42,729 bases of DNA, from the sequence record PQ589898.1; one strand, given 5' to 3'. Position numbers and translations under genes: made by a program. The stretch is from Escherichia phage Alux-21. Shown here piece by piece: positions 12,426-12,916 of the stretch. The notes beneath the pieces were generated by a model. The model saw only the letters and a list, made by a program, of their open reading frames with translations. It did no database searches and was not told where the DNA came from. Each line of letters starts with the position of its first letter. Position 1 is the first letter of the stretch.

Positions 12426-12481
12426 CATCTTTTCGGCTACAATCCCCATATTGACTTTTATTTATAATTATTGGGGGTTAC

Positions 12482-12916
12482 ATGGAATTACCGCGCACTG
12501 TGCAGGAAATAGCTGACGTTATTGGCCGTGAACGTGCGCTTTTTCTTATCGGACAACTGCCAAAACTGTGGGTGCCATCGCAGCAGTACCACAAAGTTAT
12601 TTTGTATGTGCCAAAGCGGATTCGACCCAATGACCCACTGGTGCAAATCCTGGGGTGGCACGATGCCAGCAAGATGGTGCAGCACTTCGGGGGTGAAATG
12701 CTTCACCCGGCTAACTGTGAATACATTTACCGCCGTTTTGTTCATCAGAGCATTAAGCGGATGCACAGCGAAGGAATGGACGCCAAAGCCATTGCGGAAC
12801 TGCTGGAAGTGTCAGAACGCACCGTTAAGCGCCATTGCACTGACAAACCCCACAAAGACACATCACCTGCAAATGATAACACTCCGCAACGACTACTAAC
12901 GGCTATGGGGCAATGA
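12482..12916 (+). CDS. Mor/C-family transcriptional activator-like protein (putative late-gene activator)
   Basis: 144 aa; central ...ILYVPKR... and C-terminal HTH-like MDAKAIAELLEVSERTVKRH resemble Mu Mor/C proteins; located directly upstream of the lysis cassette; TATAAT hexamer at 12463-12468. Confidence 0.45.
   Translation: MELPRTVQEIADVIGRERALFLIGQLPKLWVPSQQYHKVILYVPKRIRPNDPLVQILGWHDASKMVQHFGGEMLHPANCEYIYRRFVHQSIKRMHSEGMDAKAIAELLEVSERTVKRHCTDKPHKDTSPANDNTPQRLLTAMGQ

Follow-up and report, generated by a model that had tools for sequence, protein, structure and literature searches.

The Mor and C proteins of phage Mu are composed of an N-terminal helical dimerisation domain, a beta-strand linker and a C-terminal helix-turn-helix (HTH), and their family has an acidic N-terminus and a basic C-terminus (10.1101/2025.05.02.651988). 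Their binding sites are imperfect dyads located immediately upstream of, or overlapping, the -35 element of weak promoters (10.1101/2025.05.02.651988). We investigated a 144-amino-acid (144-aa) protein encoded beside the late genes of Escherichia phage Alux-21 (sequence record PQ589898.1; the whole stretch of 42,729 nucleotides is called the window below). It comprises a complete genome and is collinear with the genome of Escherichia phage HeidiAbel_Bas97 (Bas97); further close relatives are vB_EcoM-ep3 (ep3), ECOO78, ECO1230-10 and Salmonella phage PT1, all of the genus Jilinvirus, subfamily Iiscvirinae. The window phage is a Jilinvirus-type (Iiscvirinae) myophage; the BASEL paper described the Jilinviruses as poorly characterised and their lifestyle as "enigmatic" (PMC11990801). 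A sequence-only reading of the region had proposed the protein as a Mor/C-like switch of the late genes. Our analysis indicates, with a probability of roughly 0.72, that the 144-aa protein is the late-gene activator, a distant relative of Mor and C, and that it acts at five promoters sharing an 18-bp box. The gene and the predicted promoters are given below.

12482..12916, plus strand: late activator gene, 144 aa, ATG start (open reading frame, ORF; PHROG 836 match)
12841-12858, plus strand: lysis box TGACAAACCCCACAAAGA, in the coding 3' end of the activator gene; encodes DKPHKD; two mismatches to TGACAAACCCCAAGAAGA
12878-12883, plus strand: -10-like hexamer AACACT of the lysis promoter; predicted start near 12890
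12921..13241, plus strand: holin gene, 96% identity to the Bas97 holin; first gene 3' of the embedded promoter
17110..17152, plus strand: candidate late promoter at the TerL 3' end; box 17110-17127 (DKPQEE), -10-like GAGACT 17147-17152
19849..19891, plus strand: candidate intragenic head promoter; box 19849-19866, -10-like GATACT 19886-19891
24151..24204, plus strand: candidate baseplate gpW promoter; box 24151-24168, CATCAT 24189-24194, gpW ATG 24202
31170..31236, plus strand: candidate sheath/tube promoter; T-run hairpin 31170-31191, box 31194-31211 (one mismatch), GACCAT 31231-31236

The 18-mer TGACAAACCCCAAGAAGA is present five times in the window, always on the plus strand: it is exact at 17110, 19849 and 24151, has one mismatch at 31194 and two at 12841. 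Shuffled sequences are expected to hold 0.04 copies with up to 3 mismatches; for up to 2 mismatches, binomial arithmetic gives ~0.002 chance matches. Beyond these five, the window contains no site below six mismatches, and none lies upstream of terS; a scan allowing up to six mismatches plus a -10 gave no convincing extra site in the window, the DNA upstream of terS included. The sequence-only reading had reported a degenerate copy in the 3' coding end of the activator gene, at 12842-12859 and 62 bp before the holin gene. This copy is real, with its register now set at 12841-12858, and the holin ATG at 12921 does lie 62 nt after 12859; position 12426, at which that reading had begun the locus, falls 56 bp into the non-coding DNA 5' of the ORF. 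The predicted start of the TerL 3'-end promoter is near 17159, and its box ends 98 nt before the next gene, at 17225. The box of the head promoter lies in a linker of the 682-aa protease-scaffold-capsid gene (19298-21343). The gpW box is located 9 nt past the gpV stop and 33 nt ahead of the gpW ATG, and the sheath box directly follows a terminator-like hairpin, 72 nt ahead of the sheath gene.

The set of five boxes in Bas97 is identical to that in the window. Seven more phages, from other genera, each carry their own version of the box at corresponding places.

Arya (Enterobacter; activator 61% identical): box TGACACCCCGCACGAAGA, four exact copies
PPpW-3 (Pseudomonas): box CGGCAAACCCACAAGAGGA
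Persinger (Pseudomonas): box GGAAATCCCACAAGAGGA
Mano (Achromobacter): box GGAAAAnCCGCAAGAGGA
phiRSP (Ralstonia): box GCGGAAATCCCACCAATGGA
FoX1 (Xanthomonas): box CGGAAATTCCGGACATGGA
Alexa (Acinetobacter): box GGAAAAAGCGCAGGATGA

PPpW-3, Persinger, Mano, phiRSP and FoX1 have five copies, one of which stands in the 3' end of the activator gene. In phiRSP and Persinger, no 12-mers other than the boxes have four or more dispersed genomic copies. Alexa has three boxes, at the TerL 3' end (10794), in the head gene (13579) and upstream of the sheath gene (23744), and their -10 elements are near-consensus (CATAAT, TATAAT and TAAAAT); no box was found in its activator gene (6352-6774) or before gpW, whose gene abuts gpV. 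The hairpin and T-run followed by the sheath box are also present in Arya, PPpW-3, Mano, Persinger and Alexa. The copies within each genome change in concert, as would be expected under a phage-encoded, sequence-specific factor. Among the E. coli Jilinviruses, the lysis box is kept in its two-mismatch form (TGACAAACCCCA[C/T]AAAGA); that this form is a deliberately weaker lysis promoter is speculation.

We aligned 38 sites of the eight phages without gaps, anchored on the 3' end of the box. An A at +21 and a T at +25 after the box end were found in 36 of the 38 sites, within a hexamer (G/C)A-n-A-(A/C)-T at +20 to +25; an nAnnnT hexamer, which here stands 19 nt after the box, has a background frequency of 0.033-0.063 per position. 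Only the gpW sites of the window phage and Arya depart from this: in both, CATCAT is displaced by one nt in the 3' direction. A gapped alignment of the five window sites displayed no conservation beyond the box, and the -10 was visible only without gaps and across phages. If the hexamer serves as the -10 element, occupying -12 to -7, the box falls at about -50 to -32. Where a -35 element would stand, the sequences AAGAAG, AAGACA and AGATAA match TTGACA poorly. The predicted position of the box, the weak -10 and the lack of a -35 consensus match the geometry of Mor/C-type activation. We infer the transcription start positions and the late firing of the sites from the sequence; besides those near 12890 and 17159, the starts would lie near 19898, 24201-24202 and 31243.

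Two other readings of parts of the box were rejected. TGACA as a -35-like element has no -10 at 17 bp, and the boxes of relatives lack TGACA. AAGAGGA as a Shine-Dalgarno or RNA-level signal has no start codon in range, and the box lies upstream of the predicted transcription starts.

The gpW gene provides a further reference point. Its ATG stands 6-7 nt after the hexamer in seven phages (7 nt in the window), with no Shine-Dalgarno sequence. The corresponding stretches are ~9572-9587 in Arya, ~9740-9755 in PPpW-3, 10672-10686 in FoX1, ~27980-27994 in phiRSP, ~9604-9618 in Mano and 24189-24204 in the window. The gpW ATG is at the expected +1, and a leaderless gpW mRNA is therefore predicted; the Mano annotation lists no ribosome-binding site for the gpW gene. 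The annotated PPpW-3 gpW start (9744) is probably wrong, because it lies upstream of the predicted leaderless transcript. A GC-rich inverted repeat of 6-7 bp (GCGGGCA TCAT TGCCCGC, 24183-24200) brackets the gpW -10 and abuts the ATG; it is found in four of the seven phages (the window, and in similar form PPpW-3, phiRSP and Mano), and its role could be that of an operator, of a stabiliser of 3' ends or, in read-through transcripts, of an RNA hairpin. The intragenic head promoter has a GAGGA on its 3' side, along with an in-frame ATG (codon 216, at 19943), and a comparable GAGGA-ATG is present in Arya. This arrangement suggests a nested, separately expressed scaffold/capsid product from the head gene.

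These observations bear on the alternative that the 18-mer family is no transcription signal at all, and is for example a recombination, packaging or RNA-level element. The location of three of the five copies inside coding sequence would suit such an element. However, all copies are co-oriented with the late genes and stand at operon starts, the sheath copy comes directly after a terminator-like hairpin, the -10-like hexamer keeps its distance from the box in nearly every site, and the gpW start codon falls at the predicted +1 in seven phages. We regard this alternative as highly improbable.

In the mechanism that we propose, the activator would bind the 18-bp box TGACAAACCCCAAGAAGA after early and middle expression. 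The box would stand in for the -35 element, at about -50 to -32 and 19 nt ahead of a weak nAnnnT -10, and the bound activator would recruit the host sigma-70 RNA polymerase, as Mu C does. Five units would be switched on in this way. The box at 12841 would drive the lysis genes, with transcription probably continuing into terS/terL; that at 17110, the head-completion and portal genes; that at 19849, the nested scaffold/capsid product and the downstream head and neck genes; that at 24151, baseplate gpW, from a leaderless mRNA, and the fibre genes; and that at 31194, the sheath, the tube and the remaining tail genes.

The 144-aa protein is the putative factor binding the box. It is the only protein of the window that matches a family annotated as late activator, a family itself linked to Mor and C, and it is present in all eight phages carrying the box set. 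Furthermore, the type of recognition helix goes with the 5' half of the box: SERTVKRH occurs with TGACA (window and Arya), SDR[HQ][VI][RK]N with GGAAA (Persinger, Mano, phiRSP and FoX1) and SVTGVRAI with GGCAAA (PPpW-3). The covariation of helix and box is only partial, because the boxes of the window and Arya differ and because of the helix of Alexa. This partial covariation leaves room for the alternative that the boxes are late promoters read by another phage-encoded factor, with the 144-aa protein regulating, for example, a GGTGACnA array or the lysis genes only. Thirteen GGTGAC[ACT]A repeats directly 5' of the activator gene could be its real target, and the window encodes other small HTH proteins (7368-7598 and 1119-1337). 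Against this stand the family match of the activator, its retention in all eight phages, the agreement of recognition-helix classes with the box 5' half, and a position beside the lysis genes that mirrors Mu C; we consider another reader of the boxes unlikely.

The assignment of the 144-aa protein to a late-activator family was examined at the level of profiles, sequences and folds. The protein matched PHROG 836, 'late transcriptional activator', with E=1.3e-30 and 107 bits; its residues 2-130 align to positions 11-127 of the 133-position profile. The same entry is matched by Mu Mor and Mu C, with E-values of 1.2e-10 and 2.1e-11, over the C-terminal two-thirds of the profile. The Pfam Mor model PF08765 was matched at E<=1 by 29 of 49 homologues (best 3.1e-8), and a precomputed PF08765 match exists for two homologues. 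In an hhalign comparison of the family alignment with a Mor+C alignment, the match was weak (E=8.9e-4, probability only 23%) but in the right register: residues 60-121 align on Mor 55-115, with FGGE-L-P...RD..I...HTH on GGGQVYIP...RD..I...HTH. The Mor+C profile is shallow, because word-indexed searches for homologues of Mu Mor and Mu C gave only close enterobacterial relatives. Direct BLASTP of the activator against Mu Mor and C gave nothing significant. Phmmer and profile searches of the PDB sequences returned only generic HTH or designed repeat proteins, Foldseek with the activator model only generic HTH domains, the fold searches being non-discriminating, and an NCBIfam scan only weak HTH matches. 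Membership of the sigma-70 family was considered and rejected: only HTH stretches of 22-28 residues match Sigma70_r4_2, Sigma70_r4 or ECF, below cut-off, and region 2 is absent.

The activator is 96.5% identical to the 'late transcriptional activator' of Bas97. Orthologues with 40-96% identity are located at the same position in Bas97, ep3, ECOO78, ECO1230-10, PT1, Arya, KA2-1, MQ-4, PPpW-3, Persinger, Mano, Mica, phiRSP, FoX1-5 and Murka, and the family comprises 492 cluster representatives at E<=1e-10. RefSeq records of relatives label the orthologue 'late transcriptional activator', and in the record of Achromobacter phage Mano it is a 'Mor-like transcription factor' likened to 1RR7. With late activator or Mor-like labels already on the relatives, the protein is not new in its identity. 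We file the activator as a divergent, remote Mor/C-like relative and not as a canonical family member: the PHROG and profile matches point to a remote link, and no Pfam Mor, BLASTP or PDB sequence match to Mor or C was obtained for the protein itself.

The AlphaFold2 (AF2) model of the activator, calculated with 49 homologues, has a mean pLDDT (predicted local distance difference test score) of 83.8, falling below ~50 in the tail. It contains an extra N-terminal module (residues 1-45), helices at 52-57 and 59-69, a short strand at 73-74, and helices at 80-96, 101-108 and 112-119. The C-terminal HTH covers approximately aa 89-120 (generic Pfam HTH matches, all under cut-off), and the tail, aa 121-144, is predicted to be disordered, with low confidence from residue 121. 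In the model, the order of elements is compatible with the Mor/C architecture, the N-terminal module being additional. This module, LP-SVQEIADVIGRERAL...ILYVPK (12482-12616), is almost invariant, and no other part of the family is conserved as well; it may have arisen by internal duplication or serve as an additional oligomerisation domain. The module loosely echoes the helix-G-x-hydrophobic-P pattern of the Mor-like core (DA-KLV..FGGEILQP). The charge is -1.5 for residues 1-27 and +2.1 for the HTH region, 80-122, and the tail (123-144) is neutral.

Several observations weigh against the activator as a Mor/C relative that binds the boxes. PF08765 was absent from the activator itself even at E<=10 in the Pfam scan, and the profile search of the PDB sequences misses both Mor (1RR7) and C (9L0X). 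Window and Arya share a recognition helix and differ in the middle of the box, and Alexa has another recognition helix yet a GGAAA-type box. By inspection, TGACAAACCCCAAGAAGA has no evident inverted repeat, whereas Mor/C sites are imperfect dyads; a GGAnnTCC core is present in the boxes of some relatives. The lysis box is degenerate in the window (two mismatches), and the fifth copy of Arya, in the activator 3' end, is weak, differing from Arya's own box at seven positions. The literature searched yielded no transcript, footprint or reporter results for this phage group. In regards to the Mor/C-like features that the sequence-only reading had assigned to the 144-aa protein, the C-terminal HTH was confirmed and the link to the family through PHROG 836 supported, and a Pfam Mor match to the protein itself was not obtained; the profile search proposed for it succeeded with 29 of the 49 homologues and failed with the window protein.

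The holin gene starts 4 nt past the activator stop, and the holin promoter therefore has to lie in coding DNA. The promoter at 12841 probably serves the lysis and terminase genes together. The tail peptide of the activator (DKPHKD...NDNT in the window) is the translation of the phage's own box plus -10, as seen from the codons and peptides at the box.

Persinger: GAA ATC CCA CAA GAG GAT, EIPQED
Mano: GAA AAT CCG CAA GAG GAA, ENPQEE
phiRSP: GCG GAA ATC CCA CCA ATG GAA, AEIPPME
FoX1: AAG GAA ATT CCG GAC ATG GCA, KEIPDMA
PPpW-3: GCA AAC CCA CAA CAG GAC, ANPQQD
window: GAC AAA CCC CAC AAA GAC, DKPHKD

In the same frame, the box writes DKPQEE into the TerL tail (17110-17127) and into the linker of the head protein (19849-19866); three unrelated proteins, the activator, TerL and the head protein, share a peptide that is imposed by the DNA signal. 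Several observations speak for a constraint at the level of the DNA. Because the same boxes also stand in intergenic DNA, the peptide follows from the DNA element and not the DNA from the peptide. The frame of the core CAAACCC differs between the window (C AAA CCC) and PPpW-3 (CA AAC CC). The tail motif of the family, A-N-D-N, overlies the -10 hexamer (GAT AAC ACT in the window; GAC AAT in phiRSP), and the spacing is held at the DNA level, because the hexamer stays at 19 nt although phiRSP has one extra residue. The activator of Alexa, which has no box in its gene, also has no PQEE/ANDN tail and serves as a natural control for the idea of dual coding.

Metagenomic contigs encoding distant homologues were used as a prospective test; L016 and L017 were usable, and L015 ends before TerL. 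The tail DNA of L016, GGAAATCCCGCAAGAAG (10390), occurs again at 14763, in the TerL 3' end, and at 17558, within the protease-capsid gene. That of L017, GAAAACCACCAGAGGAA (10362), occurs again at 14628, in the TerL 3' end. All of the L016 and L017 copies carry an nAnnnT hexamer at +20 to +25.

These results bear on the alternative that the 12841 copy is non-functional and a by-product of a need, at the protein level, for a D/E-K-P-Q-E-E-like tail, with the lysis genes served by read-through from the activator's promoter. The mismatches in the window and Arya copies described above are in keeping with a by-product, Alexa manages without a box at its activator gene, and C-terminal truncation of Mor or C abolishes activation (10.1101/2025.05.02.651988). 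However, the tail peptide varies with each phage's own box, intergenic boxes included (PPME in phiRSP and PDMA in FoX1), the CAAACCC core changes its frame between the window and PPpW-3, and the -10-like hexamer is at the exact 19-nt spacing at the activator site in all phages, even with the residue inserted in phiRSP. The activator tail is, moreover, predicted to be disordered, and the prediction was upheld in the new contigs L016 and L017. We consider a by-product quite improbable. The fixed -10 spacing, the tracking of the box by the peptide and the prospective test weigh against both the by-product and the non-promoter explanations.

For the promoter embedded in the activator gene, we put just short of an even chance on the family tail (E/D-x-P-Q-E-E...A-N-D-N) being kept mainly as DNA, as the translation of the target box and of the lysis/terminase -10. 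Its corollary, that the activator binds inside its own gene, belongs to the same reading and is offered equally tentatively. If this is true, the switching-on of lysis and packaging could be coupled to a block on the read-through that starts at the activator's own promoter, which would constitute a built-in self-limiting switch.

The surroundings of the activator gene comprise the following features.

exoVIII to SSB: leftward early operon
helicase to primase: rightward early operon
529-816, minus strand: DksA/TraR-like, zinc-finger-like protein (phrog_54) in the leftward early operon; the only zinc-finger-like protein among the ORFs scanned
1119-1337: excisionase-like small HTH protein
7368-7598: 77-aa small HTH protein, PHROG 14341 'transcriptional repressor'
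12074-12091: terminator 3' of the rightward early operon
between the terminator and the 144-aa gene: non-coding stretch of 390 bp
12415..12443, plus strand: candidate sigma-70 promoter of the activator gene, TGGTCA-17-TACAAT (consensus scan only; low confidence)
3' of the activator gene, in order: lysis cassette, terS/terL, head, baseplate, fibres, sheath/tube and remaining tail genes
right end: ParB-like gene and integrase

The GGTGAC[ACT]A array in the non-coding DNA at 12096-12430 consists of 13 copies in both orientations around an AT-rich core. There are 27 copies genome-wide, and the array is kept at the same place in Bas97 and Arya. Its last repeat is overlapped by the candidate promoter at 12415-12443. 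The array looks like either an iteron-type origin or a multi-site operator for the activator's promoter.

The sequence-only reading had seen neither a CI/Cro-type pair nor a lambda-type Q antiterminator or P2 Ogr-type zinc finger in the window, and our searches agree on both counts. The cI-like protein of Bas97 gave no tblastn match in the window, and exoVIII (3624..2506, minus strand) directly faces the helicase gene (3897.., plus strand) across 272 bp. No match to the Q or Ogr/Delta families was obtained among ten small or uncharacterised, mostly early-region ORFs scanned against Pfam and ten scanned against PHROGs, a selection and not every ORF of the window. The arrangement without cI is common to the window, ep3, ECOO78, ECO1230-10 and KA2-1; a cI-like gene is inserted at the equivalent of window 3625-3896 in Bas97 (29058-29851), PT1 and Arya. 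The integrase ORF of the window (41163-42374, 403 aa, 82% identical to Bas97) is apparently full-length. The window phage looks like a member of a temperate lineage that lost its repressor, and Jilinviruses have been reported to differ in this respect, some having kept integrase and cI intact and others having lost them (PMC11990801).

No description of the late promoters, the embedded promoter or the motif strings was found in papers on the phage group or in full-text searches of a searchable library that is incomplete, and the promoter set and the dual coding appear to be undescribed. Jilinvirus and related phages serve as candidates for therapy and biocontrol. The present analysis provides them with a testable map of late transcription, in which one activator would serve five promoters with defined boxes and predicted starts, gpW would have a leaderless mRNA and the head gene a nested capsid product. 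Activation of the Mor/C type would thereby reach a family that is large and divergent. The tail of the activator would show how, in nature, a promoter can dictate a conserved peptide motif, which advises caution in reading function into conserved disordered tails. Pairs of phage-specific box and activator could become orthogonal expression parts.

The tail/baseplate module of the window (gpV, W, J, I, sheath FI, tube, U, X and D) is like that of P2. The late promoters of P2 that depend on Ogr/Delta are PP, PO, PV and PF; P2 late operons, too, begin at the sheath gene and close to the baseplate genes, an activator site takes the place of the -35 element, and the P2 site is a TGT-N12-ACA dyad. 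Unlike P2, the window encodes an HTH activator instead of the zinc-finger Ogr, and its box is not a TGT-N12-ACA dyad.

In regards to Mu, the activator is likewise a small protein (144 aa, compared with 129-140 aa in Mu), whose C-terminal two-thirds align with Mor and C through a helix, a GG-x-x-hydrophobic-x-P linker, R-D-x-x-I and then the HTH. As with C, its gene lies directly upstream of the lysis genes. Late promoters are few in both phages (four in Mu and five here), with a weak -10 and no -35 consensus (Mu: 10.1101/2025.05.02.651988). Unlike Mu Mor and C, the activator possesses an extra conserved N-terminal module and has no significant direct sequence or fold match to them. Its N-terminus is not strongly acidic and its tail is neutral, whereas the N-terminus of Mor is strongly acidic and its tail reads RRMRRLKYRQY; the box, unlike Mor/C sites, is without clear dyad symmetry. 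Finally, where Mu employs a Mor-to-C cascade, the window has a single activator gene, and one of the promoters lies inside the coding sequence of the activator.

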